IMG/VR virus record: IMGVR_UViG_3300037657_000283
Span: 1-39,169 of that record
Source: a virus
Lineage: Duplodnaviria > Caudoviricetes
DNA: 39,169 nt
Direction: 5' to 3' (one strand)
The position numbers and the translations under genes are program-made. Shown one piece after another: positions 15,602 through 39,169 of the stretch (positions are counted from its first letter, which is position 1; each line of letters starts with the position of its first letter). Below the pieces are notes generated by a model. That model saw only the letters and a list, made by a program, of their open reading frames with translations. It was not told the DNA's origin and did no database searches.

Positions 15602-16057
15602 TTATTTTTTGGTAACTTTCTTTTTTGCTCGTGATTTCAGGCTTTTTTCTGTGATACCAGCCATGTCGGGATTGCCAACCTGCACGGGAGCGAGGCCGAT
15701 TTTGCCCCGAATATAATTGCTCACGCTCACCCCAGCAGCCTTGGCAGCCTTGTCCAGCTCAGCTTTTTCAGCTTCAGACGATGCCGCCACAATCCACTGA
15801 TTCCGTTTCGTTGCCATTTCCGCTCCAATATCTGATCCGCAATAAAGACAGTTGCAGCTGCCCACAACATTGTACACACGTCGCCCATGAGGCTCGATCT
15901 TGTACTCCAACGATGTCCCATCATCCACGATCTGATTGAGTAATCGCAGCACCTGGCGAGACGCCAAGCCCAGGTGCTCACTCATCTGCTTGAGTGTGAG
16001 ATCCTTGGTCGTCGCCAGCATTACTGCGAGTCGCAATTTCGATTTGTCAACAGGCAT
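15602..16057 (-). CDS. Two-domain DNA-binding protein (N-terminal wHTH, C-terminal RHH-like)
   Basis: LTLKQMSEHLGLASRQVLRLL HTH; CxCxxC linker; EKAELDKAAKAAGVSVSNYIR RHH-like; AAGGA SD. Confidence 0.7.
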   Translation of the reverse strand: MPVDKSKLRLAVMLATTKDLTLKQMSEHLGLASRQVLRLLNQIVDDGTSLEYKIEPHGRRVYNVVGSCNCLYCGSDIGAEMATKRNQWIVAASSEAEKAELDKAAKAAGVSVSNYIRGKIGLAPVQVGNPDMAGITEKSLKSRAKKKVTKK

Positions 16058-16826: not shown

Positions 16827-16854
16827 TTGACAATATGATTTCATGATGTTTAAT
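16827..16854 (+). promoter_or_regulatory. Candidate late promoter
   Basis: Perfect TTGACA, 16 bp spacer, TTTAAT. Confidence 0.55.
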
Positions 16855-16897
16855 CATTTGGGTACAAACTGACTTTGTGTCAGATCATTTTGCCAAT

Positions 16898-16945
16898 AGG
16901 ACGGCATCAGGGACCAGAAATGGTTTTTGATGCCGTCCTTTTTTT
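16898..16945 (+). terminator. Intrinsic terminator
   Basis: 19 bp stem (three G-U pairs), GAAA tetraloop, T-run. Confidence 0.85.
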
Positions 16946-16972
16946 GTGCGCACATTTAACCAGGGGAATGAA

Positions 16973-17230
16973 ATGAAACGAATTGTCGTCACGATTGATA
17001 TCGACGAGGCCAAGGCTAAGAACCTGGCTGCAACAAAACTCAACAGTTTGGTTGATATTCCTTTTATCAACGAATCGGTTGAACAGATGGGAATTGAATC
17101 TGTTCTAAATCTCGACAAGTTGGGAATCGATAACGTGGTCAGCAACGGTATTGCTTACATCGAGAAGACCATCGAAACGCTTATCGGTGGCGAATGCATG
17201 ACAACGAAAACCGTCTCGTCTGTCATTTGA
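16973..17230 (+). CDS. Hypothetical protein
   Basis: AGGGG SD before ATG 16973. Confidence 0.65.
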   Translation: MKRIVVTIDIDEAKAKNLAATKLNSLVDIPFINESVEQMGIESVLNLDKLGIDNVVSNGIAYIEKTIETLIGGECMTTKTVSSVI

Positions 17231-17360: not shown

Positions 17361-17708
17361 ATGGAACTTGGCATTAAAGAACTGTTGACGATTGGTGGCA
17401 TTGTATTGTCAGCGCTGCTGATCGTTGGCATTCAGGGTGCAACGTATCTGATTCGCTGGATCCGGTCGCTGTTTCCAAACCAATCAATTGCGAAGGGAGG
17501 TGATCCTAAAGGTATCTCTCGGTCTGCTGATGAACCCGCAACGTCTGGTATGGTTGATTACATCAAGGACATTGCTGAAGCGTGCGGAACCGCTCCTGCT
17601 GAGTTTGTGCTTGAACAATTGAAGACTGGTGTCAGTCGTGATATCGCCAGAGCAAACCGGATCCGCTCCCTTGAGTCACCTGCTGGGGTGAAGGTGGAGG
17701 CGAAATGA
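17361..17708 (+). CDS. Membrane protein, one N-terminal TM (holin-like candidate)
   Basis: LLTIGGIVLSALLIVGI TM segment; ATG 17361. Confidence 0.7.
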   Translation: MELGIKELLTIGGIVLSALLIVGIQGATYLIRWIRSLFPNQSIAKGGDPKGISRSADEPATSGMVDYIKDIAEACGTAPAEFVLEQLKTGVSRDIARANRIRSLESPAGVKVEAK

Positions 17709-18085
17709 CAACCACTCGAATCATCGGCGTTGTGATGTTGTTGCTGACGCTGGGAGTGTATGCAGTCCCTGAATCGGCTTTCAACGTGGTCCCTGTTGTT
17801 GGTGGGGTTGTGATCTTTCGTGATGCGAATTTGCAGCGGTCGGTGATTTGGTCAGAGGCTGCAACGAAGGTTCGAGCCAAAGAATTCAACGCTGACGACA
17901 AGCAGGATGTGCGGAAGAAGATGGGGGAATTTCTTGACGGGAAGTTGAACCCATTGAAAGCTGAAGAAATCAAAGCATTGGCAGTGTTGATGGATGGAGA
18001 ATTTGACCGGCAGGATGTGACGACTGAAACACTCGGGAAGATGTGTGATCAGATTTCAGCAGCATATAAGAGGGCCGGACAATGA
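17705..18085 (+). CDS. Secreted or membrane-anchored hypothetical protein
   Basis: Signal-peptide-like RIIGVVMLLLTLGVYA; GGAGG SD; ATGA overlap. Confidence 0.75.
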   Translation: MTTTRIIGVVMLLLTLGVYAVPESAFNVVPVVGGVVIFRDANLQRSVIWSEAATKVRAKEFNADDKQDVRKKMGEFLDGKLNPLKAEEIKALAVLMDGEFDRQDVTTETLGKMCDQISAAYKRAGQ

Positions 18086-18969
18086 CAGATTTTGTGACGC
18101 CAGAAAATTTCACAGGGTATCGACGTGAACTCGAATCACGCGAGTGGTTTGATTCGTTGCCTGAATTGCCGTTTACATTGCGTGATGTGCAGAAGGCGTG
18201 CGGTTCTGGCGGTCACGATTACGATCCTTTTGACCTGTTTAGTTTTGACCGTGATGACCAGTATAAACAGAATGGTTGCGTAGGCCTTGGGTCGACGAAT
18301 TGCCTTGAAACACTTGTGAGATTTGCAACGGGAAAACAACCGAAACTTTCGCGTCAAATGGCATACATGGGCGCACAGTCCAGATCATTCAGGAATGGAA
18401 AAGCATTGCTTGGAGTTGATCAGGGGGCATATGGTCAGGGTGCGATTGAGTTCATGACGGAAGTTGGATTGGTTGAGGAAAGTTTTTGGCCTTATCCGAA
18501 TCCTGTTGCTTATCCAGGGAAACAAGATTTTATAAACCGGATGAATTCCGAAGCCGTCAAGAATGCACAACATTGGAAGATTCGCAACGCATTCAGAATC
18601 AAAAATATTGATGATGCGTCGGCGTTCACGTTGTCAAAAGCTGGTTGCCTTTTGATTTGTATGTCATGGCCACCAGGAATGGACGCAAATGGCTTATGGA
18701 CATCCTATAACCCATTACTCAAAAGCGGCCATTGTGTGATGTCGCCATTCAAAACCAAGCTGGTTTTAGATCGTCAGGGCAGACCGACATTCCCGATTGT
18801 GAATTCGCATTATGCGACATATGGGAAAAAGGGGTTCGGATTCTGTTCAGATTCGATCATGCAAAAAATGATCGAGGACAAAACGGCATTCATTGCCGGG
18901 ATCACTGATCTTGTTTCGCCGGGGCCGGACTCACGGCGTTTTGTTGATAATCCAATTTTAGGAGTGTGA
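18082..18969 (+). CDS. Papain-like (C1 family) cysteine peptidase
   Basis: DQYKQNGCVG (oxyanion Gln, catalytic Cys), LSRQMAY, DQGAY, E..WPY, GHCV (His), VNSH..YGKKGFG (Asn). Confidence 0.88.
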   Translation: MTDFVTPENFTGYRRELESREWFDSLPELPFTLRDVQKACGSGGHDYDPFDLFSFDRDDQYKQNGCVGLGSTNCLETLVRFATGKQPKLSRQMAYMGAQSRSFRNGKALLGVDQGAYGQGAIEFMTEVGLVEESFWPYPNPVAYPGKQDFINRMNSEAVKNAQHWKIRNAFRIKNIDDASAFTLSKAGCLLICMSWPPGMDANGLWTSYNPLLKSGHCVMSPFKTKLVLDRQGRPTFPIVNSHYATYGKKGFGFCSDSIMQKMIEDKTAFIAGITDLVSPGPDSRRFVDNPILGV

Positions 18970-18991
18970 GAAAATGAGAAAAGATTGTGCG

Positions 18992-19714
18992 ATGAAGTTT
19001 CTTGTTTTGGCAGTGGTCGTGGCATTGTTTGCGACGATGCCGGGTTGTGGTTTGACGAACGCGAAGGCTGATCAAGGCTATTCGATCACAGATACAACGA
19101 AGATCACCGAACCGATCATCGCCAAAATTGATTCGGTTGCCGCGACATCAACGGCCAGTATTAAAGAGATCATTGAACAGCAACGCCAAGAAATGATGAC
19201 CGACATCAAAAAGATGTACGATGAAAACAGTGCCAGTCGTAAGCGGACAAGGTCTGAAGCTGTTGAAGAAAACGATGGTAAGGAAAACACAAGTCCGGGG
19301 GATTCGACCACACAAACATCACCTGATAAAGCTGGTTTGGATACACCCCGACTTGTGACCATCAATGGAAAACTTGTCGATGCTGATTCGTTTATCGGTG
19401 GGTATTGGAAGCGTGATTGGACGTATCCTGGCGGGATTGAAGGTCACATTGTTGAGCATGGTGTGAAGCCTGACGAGATTAAAGATTTCACGTTGAGCGA
19501 CTTGGAACGATTGCATGCAGCAATTCATGAGCAGGAACTGGAAGGTTCAGCGGTGAAGAAAGTTTCGCAATCTGCAGTGAAATCGAAGTCCGTTCAGCTC
19601 GTTGGGAATCAGGGGCAGGTGAGTAAATATTCAACGTATGCAAGAACGTCTGGTTGTCCTAATGGGCAATGCCCTGTGCAGCAGTATTCGTACCGAACGA
19701 TTCGTCGGCGTTGA
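18992..19714 (+). CDS. Putative lipoprotein with His-rich motif and CPNGQCP tail
   Basis: MKFLVLAVVVALFATMPG-C lipobox-like; coiled coil; HIVEH...LHAAIH; SGCPNGQCP..RRR end. Confidence 0.75.
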   Translation: MKFLVLAVVVALFATMPGCGLTNAKADQGYSITDTTKITEPIIAKIDSVAATSTASIKEIIEQQRQEMMTDIKKMYDENSASRKRTRSEAVEENDGKENTSPGDSTTQTSPDKAGLDTPRLVTINGKLVDADSFIGGYWKRDWTYPGGIEGHIVEHGVKPDEIKDFTLSDLERLHAAIHEQELEGSAVKKVSQSAVKSKSVQLVGNQGQVSKYSTYARTSGCPNGQCPVQQYSYRTIRRR

Positions 19715-19722
19715 TATTGATT

Positions 19723-19812
19723 GAGCCAGTGACAGTTGGGTCCGTTAGCAAGTTAACGTTGCATGCAACAACACGAGCGAGACGAAAGATAGTTCGAATC
19801 TATCCTGGTTCA
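19723..19812 (+). ncRNA. tRNA-like element (acceptor stem plus canonical T-arm, non-canonical core)
   Basis: GAGCCAG/CTGGTTC-A acceptor; GATAG-TTCGAAT-CTATC T-arm; GAC-AGTTGG-GTC D-like arm; CGTTA-GCAAGT-TAACG arm. Confidence 0.65.
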
Positions 19813-19828
19813 TTAAAGGTTTAGAAAA

Positions 19829-20158
19829 ATGAACTTCACCGCAAAAGCCATGAGAGAATGCAATATTGAAGCCCGTCACATCTCGCGGGTGAATGCGATA
19901 CTCACGGCTTTCGTTGAAGAGGGTCCACGCACGAAACACGATGCTCGAAAGGTAGCTCGGGAAGCGTTGCAGTCATTGTCGAATGAAGAGAGCAACGGAC
20001 AGAAAGCAGTTGGATTCGCTGGCATCGGTGGGTTTTTGTTGTGGATGACAATACGGATCATAGTCACAGCGTTGGTCGATTGGTGGTTTAAGCCAACGTT
20101 ATTCGGCAGTGAGTCAGTGTCACCGATGGTGATGGCTCAATTAGATGAGGAAATGTAA
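19829..20158 (+). CDS. Membrane protein
   Basis: TM segment GFAGIGGFLLWMTIRIIVTALVDWWF. Confidence 0.75.
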   Translation: MNFTAKAMRECNIEARHISRVNAILTAFVEEGPRTKHDARKVAREALQSLSNEESNGQKAVGFAGIGGFLLWMTIRIIVTALVDWWFKPTLFGSESVSPMVMAQLDEEM

Positions 20159-20161
20159 GAA

Positions 20162-20449
20162 ATGGATTTCGATACTGCATTGGCGAATCTTGGATTGGGT
20201 GGCACCTTGTTGATATTCATGTGGCGTGCTGCTGTGTGGATGGCACCACGTGCAGAAAAGTTTCTGGATTCACACATCACATTTGTGAATGCAATTAAGG
20301 AATGTCAGATAAAGCAAACTGAAATGATCAATGATGTTTATCGCATTGTCAGTACATCCGACTTTTGCCGGGTCGGGAAATGCGACGAATGCAAAAAGCT
20401 TGAGTACAAACCAGAGCCCGGTAATCGTTCGGGTGAAATAAAAAACTGA
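20162..20449 (+). CDS. Small membrane protein (holin-like candidate)
   Basis: N-terminal TM LGLGGTLLIFMWRAAVW, charged C-terminus, directly upstream of terminase. Confidence 0.7.
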   Translation: MDFDTALANLGLGGTLLIFMWRAAVWMAPRAEKFLDSHITFVNAIKECQIKQTEMINDVYRIVSTSDFCRVGKCDECKKLEYKPEPGNRSGEIKN

Positions 20450-20473: not shown

Positions 20474-22546
20474 ATGGCAGGACGTCCCAAGCAATTCACG
20501 GATGCAGAAAACTACGAACGCCACAAAGCAAGGGTGTCGGACCGTGAACGTAAAATGTCTGCGAGTACGCGAGACATTGGACAGATCCCAGCTGCAATAA
20601 AAGGTGATCTCAAGGAAGAGTGTCGGTTCAATTTAGAATTGTATTGCACATCATTTTTCCCTGATCTGTTCCCGCTGGATTTTTCAGATGACCATCGCAC
20701 CGTTATTGCATCACTTGAGAGATCGATACTTGAAGGTGATCTATCAGCAGTTGCCATGCCTCGCGGAAGCGGCAAGACCACACTAACGATCATTGCTTGT
20801 ATGTGGGCAATCACTTATGGGCATCGTCGATTCTTTGCTTTGATTGGTGCCACTGAGTCACACGCGAACAATCTCATTGCTGTGATAAAGTCGTTATTCG
20901 CCAATAACGATAACCTCTTGGATGCTTTCCCTGAAATCGCTTTCCCGATTCGATGCTTGCAAGGCCTTTCGATTCGGTGTAATGGCCAGTTGTGCGAGGG
21001 GCAAAGAACAGAAATCACTTGGCAAATTGACAAGATTGTATTCCCGACGATCCCCGGAAGCGAAGCCAGCGGATCCGTGGTTATGTCATCCGGAATCACT
21101 GGTGCTGTTCGCGGCCTGATGCATCTTACAGCCGATGGTGAATTGTTAAGACCTGACATTTTTATCGCTGACGATCCACAAACAGACGAGTCAGCGGCTT
21201 CGCCAAGCCAGACAGCCAAGCGGTTGAAGACATTGACCGGGACGATTGAGGGGCTTTGCGGACCTACTGTAAAGATGTCTGGTGTCGTCCCCTGCACTGT
21301 GATTCAGCCGGGCGATTTGGCAGATCAGTTATTGGATCGGAAGAAGTACCCACAGTACCACGGCATTAAAACAAAGATGCTTGTCAGTTTTCCTGATCTC
21401 GACGCACTGAAACTTTGGGAAAATGAGTACGACGATATTCGTCGCGAGTGCCTTACCAATGAGGAACCGATCACCAGGGCCACGGAATATTATTTAGCGA
21501 ACATGGAGACAATGAATCGGGGCGCTAAGGTTTCATGGGAGCAACGTTTTAACCAGGGTGAGGCATCTGCAATTCAGAATGCAATGAATCTTTGGCTGAA
21601 AAACCGATCAACATTCATGGCGGAATACCAGAATGATCCTGAAGGATTGTTGGCGGTCGAGGGTGCTGTTGTTGTTGATGCCAAAGAGATCATTGGCAAG
21701 ACAAACGAGTATCGACTTCGAGAAGTTCCCGAAGATACGAGCAAAATCACAGGGTTTATCGATGTTCAAAAGCGTTTGCTGTATTGGTATTTAATCGCAT
21801 GGAACGATTATGGTGGCGGCAAAGTGATCGGCTTTGGGGTCTTCCCCGATCAGAATGTACCATATTTTGTGGCGAATGATGCCCGGCAAACATTTGATCG
21901 GAAGTATAAAAACTGCACGGTAGAAGTTCAGATCGGTAAGGCACTCAATGAGCTGGTTGGATTTCTTGTTTCATTTCCTCTTGGGTCAAGAAACACTGTT
22001 GACGCGATCATGATCGACGCCAACTGGAGCGAATCCCGCAAAGTTGTGTATCAGTTTTGTCAGTCATTCACAGCCGTGAAATGTACTCCTTCGCATGGTC
22101 GCGGTGTACTCGCAGCTGATCGGCCAATGAGCGAATGGAAACACGACAAGGGAGACCGCAAGGGTGACAACTGGCGGATCCCGTACAAAGCGCCTGATCG
22201 TGTTCGGCATTGCGTTTATGACACGAACTTTTGGAAGTCTCGGGTGAAAAGCAAATTATTGCTGCCTCTTGGTCATAAAGAGGGGATCGAGTTTCACCAT
22301 CCCGAAGATCCGCAACGTCACAAGCTCATGATTGATCATCTGGTTTCGGAGTATAGCGTTGAAACTGCAGGTCGGGGCAGGCGTGTTGATGTATGGTCCA
22401 TGATGCCTGGACGACCCGACAACCACTGGTGGGATTGTCTTGTTGGTGCGGCTGTTTGTGGATCAACGCAAGGTGTTCAGTTTGGAGAAGCGAAGGTATC
22501 GGCCATAAAGAAAAAGAGAAAGCGGGCAGTGGTATATGACATCTGA
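20474..22546 (+). CDS. terL: Terminase large subunit (GpA-like nuclease domain)
   Basis: Walker A MPRGSGKTT, Walker B IFIADD, AEYQNDP, nuclease GFIDVQ and NHWWDC. Confidence 0.93.
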   Translation: MAGRPKQFTDAENYERHKARVSDRERKMSASTRDIGQIPAAIKGDLKEECRFNLELYCTSFFPDLFPLDFSDDHRTVIASLERSILEGDLSAVAMPRGSGKTTLTIIACMWAITYGHRRFFALIGATESHANNLIAVIKSLFANNDNLLDAFPEIAFPIRCLQGLSIRCNGQLCEGQRTEITWQIDKIVFPTIPGSEASGSVVMSSGITGAVRGLMHLTADGELLRPDIFIADDPQTDESAASPSQTAKRLKTLTGTIEGLCGPTVKMSGVVPCTVIQPGDLADQLLDRKKYPQYHGIKTKMLVSFPDLDALKLWENEYDDIRRECLTNEEPITRATEYYLANMETMNRGAKVSWEQRFNQGEASAIQNAMNLWLKNRSTFMAEYQNDPEGLLAVEGAVVVDAKEIIGKTNEYRLREVPEDTSKITGFIDVQKRLLYWYLIAWNDYGGGKVIGFGVFPDQNVPYFVANDARQTFDRKYKNCTVEVQIGKALNELVGFLVSFPLGSRNTVDAIMIDANWSESRKVVYQFCQSFTAVKCTPSHGRGVLAADRPMSEWKHDKGDRKGDNWRIPYKAPDRVRHCVYDTNFWKSRVKSKLLLPLGHKEGIEFHHPEDPQRHKLMIDHLVSEYSVETAGRGRRVDVWSMMPGRPDNHWWDCLVGAAVCGSTQGVQFGEAKVSAIKKKRKRAVVYDI

Positions 22547-23060: not shown

Positions 23061-24511
23061 TTGCCGCAATCCAGAATCGCGTGAAGACAATGTTTGGATA
23101 TCAGGCCACTGAATCCAGTGGAAGACGTAAAATCGCTTCCCCTCATGTTCGATCTGAAGACGTTGAATTAAATCCGTCGAAGCGAAAACAGCTTCAGGCT
23201 TCCACCCGTGATATCGTTCGGAATTACTCTGTTGCTCAATGGGCAATTGAAAAACACCTTGATTTCGTGTCTGGTTTTAGCTTACTTCCGACATCTGGTA
23301 GTAAGCGTGACGATGATTTGTTGAAGCTGATGCAGGAATGGTCACTGCCTGAGAACTGCGATATCTCAGGGCGTCACTCACTTAGCACAATGGTACGAAT
23401 GGCTGAAGGTCTGGCGGTTTTAGACGGTGACGTTCTTGTCGCGAAATATAAAACTGGGCATATCCAGTTGATTGAGTCAGATCGTGTTAAATCGACCGAC
23501 GCAGATCAGATACACGGTATAAAAGTTGATCAGTTTGGACGTCGCGTTTCGTACTCTGTCCATCGTCGTAATGGATCTGCACTGGAATTTGAGCGAAATG
23601 TTCCAGCTGCAAACATGTTACAACATGGATACTTCCAGTATTACGATCAATATCGCGGTATTAGTCCGTGGAAATCGGGCATAAATAGCCTAGTCGATGC
23701 TTATGAAAATGTAGACTATGCACTAGCTAAGTCGAAGTTACATCAACTATTTGCGTTGGCAATCTATCGTGAATCTGGAGTAGACCCAGACGGAACGGAA
23801 GATGATGAAGATGCTGACGACGATCACCCGTACAAGAAGATAAAACTTGGCGATAAACCGCAGATTCTTCAGCTTGATCCTGGTGATAAAGCGGAGGTTA
23901 TGGAATCTAACACACCTTCAGCTAACTTCCGCGAGTTCATGCAGTCGACGATTTCGGTGGCGCTGAAGGCTATTGATATTCCTTACTGCTTTTACGACGA
24001 GAATTACACGAATTTCTTTGGATCCCGCGCAGCTTTAATGCTGTATCTGGAGTCATGCCGTCGCAAACGCAATCGTTTGATTGAATTGTTGACAGCGCTG
24101 ACCAACTGGAAAATTTCCCAGTGGATTTCGCAGGGTCGATTGCGAATGGCAATTGATCAACCGTTGCCGTTTCGCTGGGTGCATGCCGGGGTGCCGTGGT
24201 GGAATCCGCAAGTGGAAATTGCTGCCGATGTGCAGTGTGTTGATTCGGCCTTGCGTTGTCGTCAGGAGATCCGCTTGGAGCGATTTGGCGATGACTGGTT
24301 TGATGTGGTTGATCGACTCGCGGAAGAACAAGAATACCTTGCAACTAAGGGTGTCAGCACCGTTTCCAAGAATGGGAATGGATCGCCAGTAGGTGTGACA
24401 ACTCCCGCTCCTGCTAAAGATGATCCAAACGAAATTGATTCACGCGGTGACGACGATAAGAATCCCGCTGTTACAGACGAGAAAAAGGACAATCCCAATG
24501 CCTCAAATTGA
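23057..24511 (+). CDS. Portal protein, lambda family
   Basis: RDIVRN, QYRGISP, LDPGDK, NYTNFFGSRAAL, WWNP..EI.A; size and position; GGAGG SD. Confidence 0.9.
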   Translation: MIAAIQNRVKTMFGYQATESSGRRKIASPHVRSEDVELNPSKRKQLQASTRDIVRNYSVAQWAIEKHLDFVSGFSLLPTSGSKRDDDLLKLMQEWSLPENCDISGRHSLSTMVRMAEGLAVLDGDVLVAKYKTGHIQLIESDRVKSTDADQIHGIKVDQFGRRVSYSVHRRNGSALEFERNVPAANMLQHGYFQYYDQYRGISPWKSGINSLVDAYENVDYALAKSKLHQLFALAIYRESGVDPDGTEDDEDADDDHPYKKIKLGDKPQILQLDPGDKAEVMESNTPSANFREFMQSTISVALKAIDIPYCFYDENYTNFFGSRAALMLYLESCRRKRNRLIELLTALTNWKISQWISQGRLRMAIDQPLPFRWVHAGVPWWNPQVEIAADVQCVDSALRCRQEIRLERFGDDWFDVVDRLAEEQEYLATKGVSTVSKNGNGSPVGVTTPAPAKDDPNEIDSRGDDDKNPAVTDEKKDNPNASN

Positions 24512-25601
24512 TCTCAGTAAACCAAATACAACGAAGCGTGAACGTGTTTCATTTGCCTCGCCATTTGCCGGTGATGATTGCGAATACGCTGCTGGCGGGA
24601 AGTTTGGCGGTGGCCAGATCAAGAATGCCTCACTGATTACGCGTGGTGAAGCTCTCGGTCATGGTATGTGGATTGACAACGTGATGTTGCATCAAGTTGC
24701 CGATGCTCTGAATGCCAGCGAAGACGGAATCAAATCACGCTTCACCCATCCTGGCATGTCGTCCGATGGCATGGGCAAGGCGACCGGGAAATATTTCAAC
24801 GCTCGTGTTGATGGTGATCAAGTCAAAGTCGATCACCACTTCTATAAATCAGCGAAGGAAAGCCCAGGCCATGGGGATTTGCCAAGTTACTTGATGAATC
24901 TCTCCAAGGAAGATCCCAAAGCATTTGGACTTTCCATTGTGTTCAATCGCGACAAGGAAGGCATGTCAAAGTTTTCGGACGAAAACAAGTCCGAAGATGG
25001 TTCGTTCAAATCACCTGACGAGTTGAACGAAAAGCATCTTCCGCATGTTCGCCTGGGCAAATTGTTCGCAGGTGATTTCGTCGATGATCCAGCGGCAAAC
25101 CCGAACGGCCTTTTCCATAACAACGAAGAGTTGTTTTCGATCTTGGAAGAATCTCAAGGAAGCCTTGAATTCGTGCTGGGACTGTCGGACGAAAAGCCTT
25201 CCGATGTCTTTGGCGTCGAGGCTGATCGGGCTAAAGCATTCGTTGAACGTATCCTGTTATCGAAGGGGTTCACGCTCGCAAAGAAAACTGATCCAGTCAA
25301 GGAAGACAATGTTGATCTCACGCAACGTCTTCGCGAGTTGACTGAGAAGTACGGGGCAACAGTCGCGACTGATGCCGTTCTCAACGGCAAGTCAGAGCAT
25401 CAGATTGTGGCTGATCTGTATTCATCGTTGCAGACTACTCACAAGGATCTGCAACAACAATTTGAAGAGTTGAAACGGTTCTCAGCTGGTGGCGAAACAG
25501 AGCCGTTGAGTCAAGGCAAAGAAAAGCCAGAAGAGAAAAAGGTCTCTCATACTGGTCTTTCCCCAGGTGTCCAGCGTTACGTTGACGCGACGAAAAACTG
25601 A
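24498..25601 (+). CDS. Prohead protease / scaffold
   Basis: SRFTHP, FGLSIVF, DFVDDPAANPNGLF; helical C-terminus; between portal and capsid. Confidence 0.75.
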   Translation: MPQIDLSKPNTTKRERVSFASPFAGDDCEYAAGGKFGGGQIKNASLITRGEALGHGMWIDNVMLHQVADALNASEDGIKSRFTHPGMSSDGMGKATGKYFNARVDGDQVKVDHHFYKSAKESPGHGDLPSYLMNLSKEDPKAFGLSIVFNRDKEGMSKFSDENKSEDGSFKSPDELNEKHLPHVRLGKLFAGDFVDDPAANPNGLFHNNEELFSILEESQGSLEFVLGLSDEKPSDVFGVEADRAKAFVERILLSKGFTLAKKTDPVKEDNVDLTQRLRELTEKYGATVATDAVLNGKSEHQIVADLYSSLQTTHKDLQQQFEELKRFSAGGETEPLSQGKEKPEEKKVSHTGLSPGVQRYVDATKN

Positions 25602-38369: not shown

Positions 38370-39169
38370 TGCCACTTTCTCGAGGGCATTTTGATCATTA
38401 CATAGGTGTCGGTTCAGGATTTCCGTCAGGAGTGCAGCAGAGCGACAACGGTTCGATCCTGAATGATCATTTTGCATATCCATTTGAAGATCAACAGACA
38501 TTGCCGCGTTATGTGTCAGTGGAATTCAAACGTCGAACCGATGTTGAGTTTCCCGACTACTTCAAGTACGACCCCGAAGGCGTATTTATCCTCGAACTCC
38601 AGGTGATCGACTCCATTCAAAAAATGGTCGACAGACGCGAGCAGTCACTCGGCAATATCTTTTATCCCTTTGGTGTGTTGTACGCCAACACGAACCCAGA
38701 TGGGGCTCCATGGTTTCTCAGCAACGGCCATATGATGTGGGACAGCACTCTCGGTAGATACTCGGTCTATAACGGTGGTCACACTGGATGGATGCTGTGG
38801 TACCAACGGAGTGTGATTGGATTCTCTGACTCTCCATTCAGCGATCCGTGGGAGTGGGATTTCGTATTTAACCAGGTGCGGTATGCATCATCACAATATG
38901 TAACGAGTACGGATCTGCATGAATTTGAATCCGGTCCCGTACTGCAGGGGGTGCGTCGATACAATCCATTTCGCCGATGTGTCTGGGATTATGTCGCAAC
39001 GAGTTGGAAGGATGTCGGTGGCGATCGATTCACTCCCCTGGGTGTCTTTGGCGAAACAGATCGAGAGCTCTCATATCCCAACTATTACGAAACACATTTA
39101 GAGATGACGTCGAAAGTGATCACGAAGCCGTTTTTTGGAGGTCGCGTGAAGCCTGAGTTACTGTCCTGA
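38369..39169 (+). CDS. Hypothetical aromatic-rich protein
   Basis: TAATG overlap, GGAG SD; stop coincides with the window end. Confidence 0.7.
   Translation: MPLSRGHFDHYIGVGSGFPSGVQQSDNGSILNDHFAYPFEDQQTLPRYVSVEFKRRTDVEFPDYFKYDPEGVFILELQVIDSIQKMVDRREQSLGNIFYPFGVLYANTNPDGAPWFLSNGHMMWDSTLGRYSVYNGGHTGWMLWYQRSVIGFSDSPFSDPWEWDFVFNQVRYASSQYVTSTDLHEFESGPVLQGVRRYNPFRRCVWDYVATSWKDVGGDRFTPLGVFGETDRELSYPNYYETHLEMTSKVITKPFFGGRVKPELLS

Follow-up and report, generated by a model that had tools for sequence, protein, structure and literature searches.

We examined a candidate lysis cassette in a tailed-phage genome (Caudoviricetes), IMG/VR record IMGVR_UViG_3300037657_000283. The window, i.e., the stretch of DNA analyzed here, is the whole record of 39,169 nucleotides, a provirus-type record estimated to be 85% complete; open reading frames (ORFs) were taken up to position 39169. 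An integrase gene occupies the left end, replication genes extend to ∼14.8 kb, TerL starts at 20474, and lambda-type portal, capsid, and tail genes follow rightward, with the right end of the record lying in tail genes. Directly ahead of TerL is a run of plus-strand genes encoding membrane or exported proteins around a papain-like cysteine protease (Table 1). A sequence-only reading of this DNA had described six ORFs here, the first three translationally coupled, as a lysis module with no recognizable endolysin. All six ORFs were found at the same coordinates, and those starting at 17361, 17705, and 18082 are joined by ATGA overlaps. The extent and the gene types needed correction in three places: the block starts one gene further upstream, at 16973 instead of 17361; the lipobox of the 18974 product is non-canonical, with Pro two residues ahead of Cys25, so that a lipoprotein is plausible, not certain; and the 20162 product is weakly hydrophobic.

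Table 1. Features of the cassette region and phage-free copies of the block. Window genes from −3 to +2 are numbered relative to the protease gene; KD, Kyte-Doolittle hydropathy.
Feature	Coordinates	Strand	Basis or remarks
Promoter-like site TTGACA-N16-TTTAAT, candidate late promoter (inferred)	16827..16854	+	read from sequence
Intrinsic terminator-like hairpin, 19 bp, U tail, between promoter-like site and cassette	16898..16947	+	terminator scan and folding
85-aa cassette gene, position −3, no known family	16973..17230	+	ribosome-binding site AGGGG; matches −3/−4 family
115-aa holin candidate, position −2, with a single membrane segment near its N terminus	17361..17708	+	KD 2.14
126-aa signal-anchored three-helix partner, position −1, predicted periplasmic	17705..18085	+	profile match; helical model
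295-aa papain-family C1A cysteine protease, Q60/C66/H217/N241, without signal peptide	18082..18969	+	alignment, model, fold search
246-aa exported partner, position +1, possibly lipoprotein	18974..19714	+	profile match, motifs
109-aa protein, one C-terminal membrane segment, position +2	19829..20158	+	KD 1.91
95-aa protein; amphipathic helix after a weakly hydrophobic N-terminal segment	20162..20449	+	KD 1.46 across 19 residues
Phage-free block of five genes, intact-looking, planctomycete chromosome	L143:8785-11517		
Phage-free block of five genes, intact-looking, planctomycete chromosome	L146:9109-11241		
Phage-free block of five genes, intact-looking, planctomycete chromosome	L382:9141-11924		
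Phage-free block of five genes, intact-looking, planctomycete chromosome	L383:9058-11771		
Phage-free block of five genes, intact-looking, planctomycete chromosome	L384:3930-6360		

By its modeled fold and its catalytic residues, the 18082 product is a papain-family (C1A) protease. The model (predicted local distance difference test score 89.6) matched xylellain (PDB 3OIS) with an E-value of 3.8e-12, a template modeling (TM) score of 0.65, and 17% identity; the top listed fold matches were xylellain and cathepsins, not CHAP enzymes. We aligned 119 of 142 sequences, long, fused, and fragment forms being excluded. Q60, C66, H217, and N241 were kept in 118, 117, 118, and 118 of them, respectively, which bears out the intact Q/C/H/N set noted before, and the Asn was followed by Ser-His in 73 and by Ser-Trp in 43. 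At the sequence level the protein is divergent. It had no Pfam match (including PF00112) and no PHROGs match, while, of the 10 closest homologues scanned, 7 scored above the cut-off for PF00112; a PDB sequence search returned only xylellain (E = 0.14). The Atlas placed it with mostly viral Peptidase_C1 clusters. Its 141 distant homologues share 22–35% identity with it, and a homologue gave one match, an unannotated metagenomic record. No close relative appeared in a word-index homologue search, which returned the protein itself alone, or in a search of IMG/VR by single-protein patterns, and cultured-phage records gave no match. Neither the protein nor its scanned homologues matched a CHAP or NlpC/P60 domain in Pfam, and a wall-binding domain was absent from the 24 longer homologues scanned. 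A signal peptide or a twin-arginine route of export was considered and rejected: the protease has no signal peptide, as the sequence-only reading had stated, and an N-terminal hydrophobic stretch occurred in 4 of 142 homologues, with no twin-Arg motif.

Conservation of the block in related phages, named as a check in the sequence-only reading, was assessed on 142 viral loci from two scans, 139 of them with a called protease ORF, which formed 34 groups at 70% identity. Partner profiles were built without the window genes, and the upstream partner was sought within three genes. A signal-anchored helical partner lies upstream of the protease in 33 of the 34 groups (with an ATGA overlap in 16), an exported partner lies downstream in 24, and both are present in 23; further small cassette families occur in 7–11 groups. 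The window genes 16973, 17361, 17705, 18974, and 19829 match the profiles of the relatives in the corresponding positions. We conclude that the cassette is a conserved unit of inheritance and moves as a unit. Its place relative to terminase is less constant: the lambdoid position upstream of terminase that had been pointed out holds in the window, but among the 11 groups with a window-type terminase gene within 10 kb, that gene follows the protease gene in 8 and precedes it in 3. Of 12 complete relatives, only 5 have the window's terminase family, and HK97-, Mu-, and lambda-type heads occur. Since the cassette accompanies unrelated head modules, its function goes with the host and not with the virion type.

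Among 138 chosen neighbors scanned against Pfam, a subset of the genes near the protease, no peptidoglycan hydrolase was found. Two holin families turned up: Phage_holin_10 at position −3 of L080, with an E-value of 1.3e-13, and Phage_holin_1 at −2 of L076, where the match was under the cut-off (E = 0.001); the L076 gene belongs to a family present in 7 groups. Four of 25 downstream partners matched thioredoxin in Pfam; by motif, a CxxC was seen in 15 of the 25, a His motif in 9, and a pair of Cys residues at the C terminus in 11. Other enzymes join the block in some relatives: three groups have an M10 matrixin with PG_binding_1, L066 has a trypsin and an astacin-like enzyme, and the gene immediately downstream of the C1 protease gene in L073 (L073:10633-12390) codes for a thioredoxin with a lipoprotein signal, fused to a trypsin/HtrA-like domain. 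As these accessory enzymes are proteases and not glycan hydrolases, we counted them in favor of lysis by proteolysis. The matrixin gene heads the cassette in three large phages of 157–205 kb (L128:8322-9245, L133:8324-9226, and L124:8288-9202). A lipid-desaturase-domain gene (PF10520) was seen inside two cassettes (L115:11585-12112, E = 1e-39 in L115; L150:10851-11303).

None of the cassette ORFs in the window matches any Pfam or PHROGs family, and their assignment comes from the profiles of the relatives. The 16973 product matches a family at −3/−4 of 8 of the 34 groups (E = 5e-5), the 17361 product a family in 11 groups (E = 6e-12), the 18974 product the downstream family of 24 groups (E = 6.5e-15), and the 19829 product a family in 10 groups (E = 0.004). 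The 17705 product is the best non-member match to the upstream-partner profile (E = 0.0034 across residues 7–124). Its model had no PDB match at E = 0.001, and a reading of this partner as a papain propeptide was dropped as unsupported. The 18974 product contains a coiled/linker region, a His motif (H158...H182), and a C-terminal CPNGQCP, i.e., a C-terminal Cys pair; the thioredoxin CxxC of many relatives is absent, and an Atlas search with this protein gave nothing usable. The window copy is a divergent one without the thioredoxin domain, which shows that the core of the cassette is the protease, the anchored helical partner, and an exported Cys/His protein. The 20162 product had no homologue in the assembled cassette sets; it is a candidate holin by position and shape alone, and single-membrane-segment genes of similar shape lie at +1 to +3 in relatives. 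An anchored helical gene and a lipoprotein-like gene are present, and no spanin family was matched in the window or in the scanned neighbors.

We then looked for a conventional endolysin. As the sequence-only reading had it, none is recognizable in the window: no peptidoglycan hydrolase was found among the 53 ORFs (Pfam, PHROGs), and six-frame searches for M15_3, Amidase_3, and M23 were empty. In 12 protease-bearing genomes at least 92% complete, 501 non-cassette ORFs of 105–700 aa were reduced to 411 representatives, and none of these matched a peptidoglycan hydrolase at E = 1e-4. As a control, six families (Phage_lysozyme, Amidase_2, GH108, GH19, SLT, and M15_4) were searched for in 20 near-complete carrier genomes from 15 groups, 8 of them with terminal repeats, and in 31 integrase-bearing records of unrelated temperate phages of at least 33 kb, chosen, with an unrelated motif as query, among the first 80 of its 120 hits. 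The families were present in 0 of 20 carriers vs. 18 of 31 controls (Fisher p = 1e-5), and in 0 of 20 vs. 7 of 17 when the controls were the metagenome-derived ones (p = 0.002). No unannotated enzyme-size family outside the cassette was common to most of the 13 genomes compared. Known peptidoglycan hydrolases are thus lacking in the near-complete protease-bearing relatives. PG_binding_1 was detected in 7 of 39 records and was set aside as evidence of peptidoglycan, since in the three cases checked it forms the N-terminal part of a matrixin, an arrangement that eukaryotic matrix metalloproteinases share. A mutual-exclusion test with relatives of the window's terminase was uninformative, as those relatives are also without known endolysins.

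The protease family was also found at eight cellular loci. Seven are in four Planctomycetaceae genomes, in line with the Planctomycetota-type host suggested earlier, and one is on a 9.7-kb contig in a Rheinheimera bin, which is probably a mis-binned phage piece. In a prophage of the cultured strain Thalassoglobus neptunius KOR42 the cassette stands ahead of tail-like and terminase genes. Among 301 Planctomycetota genomes, 21 matched the protease family at 1e-25, 4 of them below 1e-58; the three newly found strong (<1e-58) genomes carry the block, and two weak ones inspected have xylellain-like proteins without it. From these relatives, the window's host is likely a planctomycete. Planctomycete walls are described as dominated by protein, with Cys-rich YTV proteins (PMC12673574), and in Planctopirus limnophila murABCDEFGJ are given as not essential and a YTV protein, which is a Cys-rich wall protein, as among the essential genes (PMC10632474). 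YTV proteins are encoded by 5 of 5 carrier genomes tested, as they would be by any Planctomycetia. In the prophage copy at L150:9920-10796 the protease gene is split across two frames, by a break or a sequencing error.

Anchored forms of the protease bear on its site of action. Three homologues consist of a membrane anchor, a Pro-rich linker, a helical region, and then the protease. The helical region matched the upstream-partner profile (80%, E = 1.4e-5, 48 columns), vs. at most 12% for five other cassette families. A second C1 lineage, with no Pfam hit at 1e-4, was found in a cassette-like block of one 99%-complete terminase relative (L271:10344-11693, minus strand). It has 154 relatives; in the best 80 of these (L302-L381) an N-terminal membrane segment is present in 15 of 16 groups, and weak matches to the partner family lie upstream in 4 of 16. 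These anchored forms suggest that the protease acts outside the cytoplasm. Inteins sit directly before the catalytic Cys, which is their +1 residue, in 10 of 142 homologues. Inteins favor essential genes, and because of this insertion site the protease is likely an essential enzyme. The carriers (P0016, P0079, P0084, P0085, P0086, P0103, P0106, P0117, P0120, and P0140) share one site, and several of the inteins have LAGLIDADG homing endonucleases.

The cassette heads the late operon. Folding of 16860-16950, which includes the terminator-like hairpin, gave −44 kcal/mol (z-score −7.4; 0 of 200 shuffles). The promoter-like site at 16827 is absent from the list of a consensus scan that demands A at position 2 of the −10 box. 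The promoter-like site and terminator before the cassette give a layout like that of lambda pR′-tR′. No Q-type antiterminator was recognized in the window, despite the strong terminator ahead of the late genes. A divergent 151-aa gene (15602-16057, minus strand) adjoins the late promoter; its product begins with a helix-turn-helix (HTH)-like segment and also has a Cys pair and a ribbon-helix-helix domain resembling NikA (E = 1e-6), and it is a candidate late regulator. Elsewhere in the window, two tandem Nu1-like/HTH genes (1647-2134) adjoin the integrase gene and are excisionase-like, no small terminase gene was recognized next to TerL when the window ORFs were compared with Pfam and PHROGs, and a 393-aa gene without a family match (24420-25601) lies between the portal and capsid genes, a position that makes it a candidate head protease or scaffold.

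We give an even chance to the reading that this is a conserved late-gene cassette of Planctomycetia phages, in which a holin-released papain-family protease replaces the endolysin and cuts a protein wall. Late transcription would start at the 16827 promoter and would require read-through of the 16898 terminator. The signal-less protease would accumulate in the cytoplasm, with the −1 and +1 partners exported and waiting in the periplasm, until it is let out by a holin, for which the small membrane proteins 17361, 19829, and 20162 are the candidates. Working with the helical −1 partner (the two are fused in some relatives), the protease could then cut proteins of the wall, for instance the Cys-rich YTV proteins. 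The +1 partner may aid by thiol-disulfide exchange (through the thioredoxin CxxC in most relatives, here through the C-terminal Cys pair) or by disturbing the outer membrane. A lytic, proteolytic role and a protein-wall substrate are predictions of this reading, with three candidates for the holin of the window. The broader proposal is tentative: that tailed phages leave these cells by a new route, in which a holin-released papain protease and exported partners, often a thioredoxin and sometimes additional proteases, digest a disulfide-linked protein wall with no peptidoglycan hydrolase, that at least two protease lineages do so, and that hosts keep stranded copies.

A number of observations weigh against lysis by this protease. 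The window is 85% complete and the provirus ends in tail genes. Only ∼100 of the 411 ORF representatives have any Pfam hit, so a remote endolysin could hide among the rest; the 20 carriers amount to only 15 groups, and Pfam covers cultured hosts better. The protease family was in 0 of 26 records chosen by the window's terminase. Among nine protease-less terminase relatives, a peptidoglycan hydrolase was absent from the 150 ORF representatives scanned of 179, and a C1 protease was not found in 8 of the 9 (67–86% complete), by a motif scan that missed even the second-lineage protein. Terminase relatives without the protease are therefore also without a known endolysin, and endolysin absence does not single out the cassette. 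The holin-like partner proposed in the sequence-only reading holds for L080 and L076, where holin families lie within the block, but no window gene matches one: holin and spanin families had 0 matches among the 53 ORFs (Pfam, PHROGs). The redox step is not universal, as the window +1 partner is without the CxxC. Peptidoglycan has been detected in planctomycetes (PMC12673574), and fusions to PG_binding_1 are seen for other C1 peptidases of phages: one viral Atlas cluster of 75 combines Peptidase_C1 (59%) with PG_binding_1 (83%) and has a TM score of 0.70 to the 18082 product. In L003 and L093, the block has head genes on one side and neck genes on the other. At five cellular loci the block (Table 1) stands among housekeeping genes with no phage gene within ∼8–10 kb.

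The last point leads to an alternative that we consider unlikely, namely that the block is an envelope-remodeling or cargo module shared with hosts (for non-lytic release, vesicle or bud formation, or superinfection exclusion) and not a lysis device. At the phage-free loci, 60 of 96 listed neighboring ORFs were scanned. In a quick tree, in which the window protein is on a long branch and which does not tell phage-to-host from host-to-phage transfer, the phage-free copies fall in three places; one of these, comprising two loci, branches beside host C1A enzymes (support 85). A planctomycete has been reported to release phage without lysis (PMC10945688). The other two places in the tree are among phage sequences, as would be expected of stranded lysis cassettes. 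The small number of genomes below 1e-58 (4 of 301) argues against a core host function, and the block stands first or last in late operons and contains holin families. The phage-free copies may be stranded or tamed lysis (or wall-remodeling) cassettes, or the source of the phage module.

Rather unlikely, too, is a lysis cassette in which the C1A enzyme is a peptidoglycan endopeptidase, i.e., an endolysin with a new catalytic domain. The papain-fold CHAP and NlpC/P60 enzymes are known phage lysins (PMC10318531), and the Atlas cluster with PG_binding_1 and the peptidoglycan detected in Planctomycetia (PMC12673574) fit such an activity. The fold is cathepsin/xylellain-like, not CHAP, none of the 24 longer homologues has a wall-binding domain, the accessory enzymes of the block are general proteases and thioredoxins, and mur genes are dispensable in P. 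limnophila (PMC10632474). We doubt still more that a conventional, undetected endolysin lyses the cell, with the protease confined to processing or activating its partners, the holin or spanin-like proteins among them; incompleteness of the window and the mostly unannotated ORFs of the relatives leave room for one, against which stand the absence of six families from 20 near-complete relatives, 8 with terminal repeats, vs. 18 of 31 controls, and of any unannotated enzyme-size family outside the cassette common to most genomes compared. Least probable is a protease that matures virion proteins or is carried in the virion so as to breach the wall during entry, as its late-operon location and the L003 and L093 arrangements might indicate: its neighbors are membrane or exported proteins, unrelated head types accompany it, anchored forms exist, G015 and G017 have a separate S78 or Clp-type head protease, and its C1A fold is not the S78, S49/Clp, or U-family fold of prohead proteases encoded between portal and capsid genes.

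Tailed phages that infect walled bacteria are expected to require a peptidoglycan hydrolase for exit. A whole phage group with a papain protease in place of that enzyme, if lysis by the protease is true, would widen this rule. It also bears on the old question of what holds the planctomycete cell together, given detectable peptidoglycan, dispensable synthesis genes, and an essential Cys-rich wall protein in P. limnophila (PMC10632474). The substrate of the phage protease would then name the load-bearing wall layer, and the enzyme would be both a direct test and a tool; cultured T. neptunius KOR42 carries the cassette in a prophage.

Compared with known systems, the protease shares its fold and Gln/Cys/His/Asn residues with xylellain of Xylella fastidiosa and other papain/cathepsin C1A enzymes, and differs from them in its low identity, in having Asn-Ser-His more commonly than Asn-Ser-Trp among its relatives, and in being phage-borne in a fixed membrane cassette. 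In the literature searched, mostly without subscription journals, we found no account of xylellain/papain C1A peptidases as lysins and no description of a C1A protease lysis cassette. CHAP enzymes (LysK, PlyC), NlpC/P60 enzymes, and the pseudomurein endoisopeptidases PeiW/PeiP are likewise papain-superfamily Cys-His peptidases that open the host wall (PMC10318531); unlike the present protease they belong to other families, none of which was matched here, cut murein or pseudomurein peptide bridges, and usually have wall-binding domains. The protease cassette shares several traits with lambda S-R-Rz/Rz1. Both comprise the first genes of the late operon, with a promoter-like site and terminator before and terminase after, and both have small membrane proteins flanking one signal-less hydrolase and a lipoprotein-like gene after it. 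Unlike lambda, the cassette has a C1A protease as its hydrolase, coupled to an exported helical partner, and the exported protein downstream carries thioredoxin or His motifs; in the window, holin and spanin families gave no match. Judged as a holin-endolysin-spanin cassette, the window block has the late-operon position and holds no peptidoglycan hydrolase of a known family. The cassette would resemble a holin-endolysin cassette in its working, with a protease standing where the defining peptidoglycan hydrolase would be.

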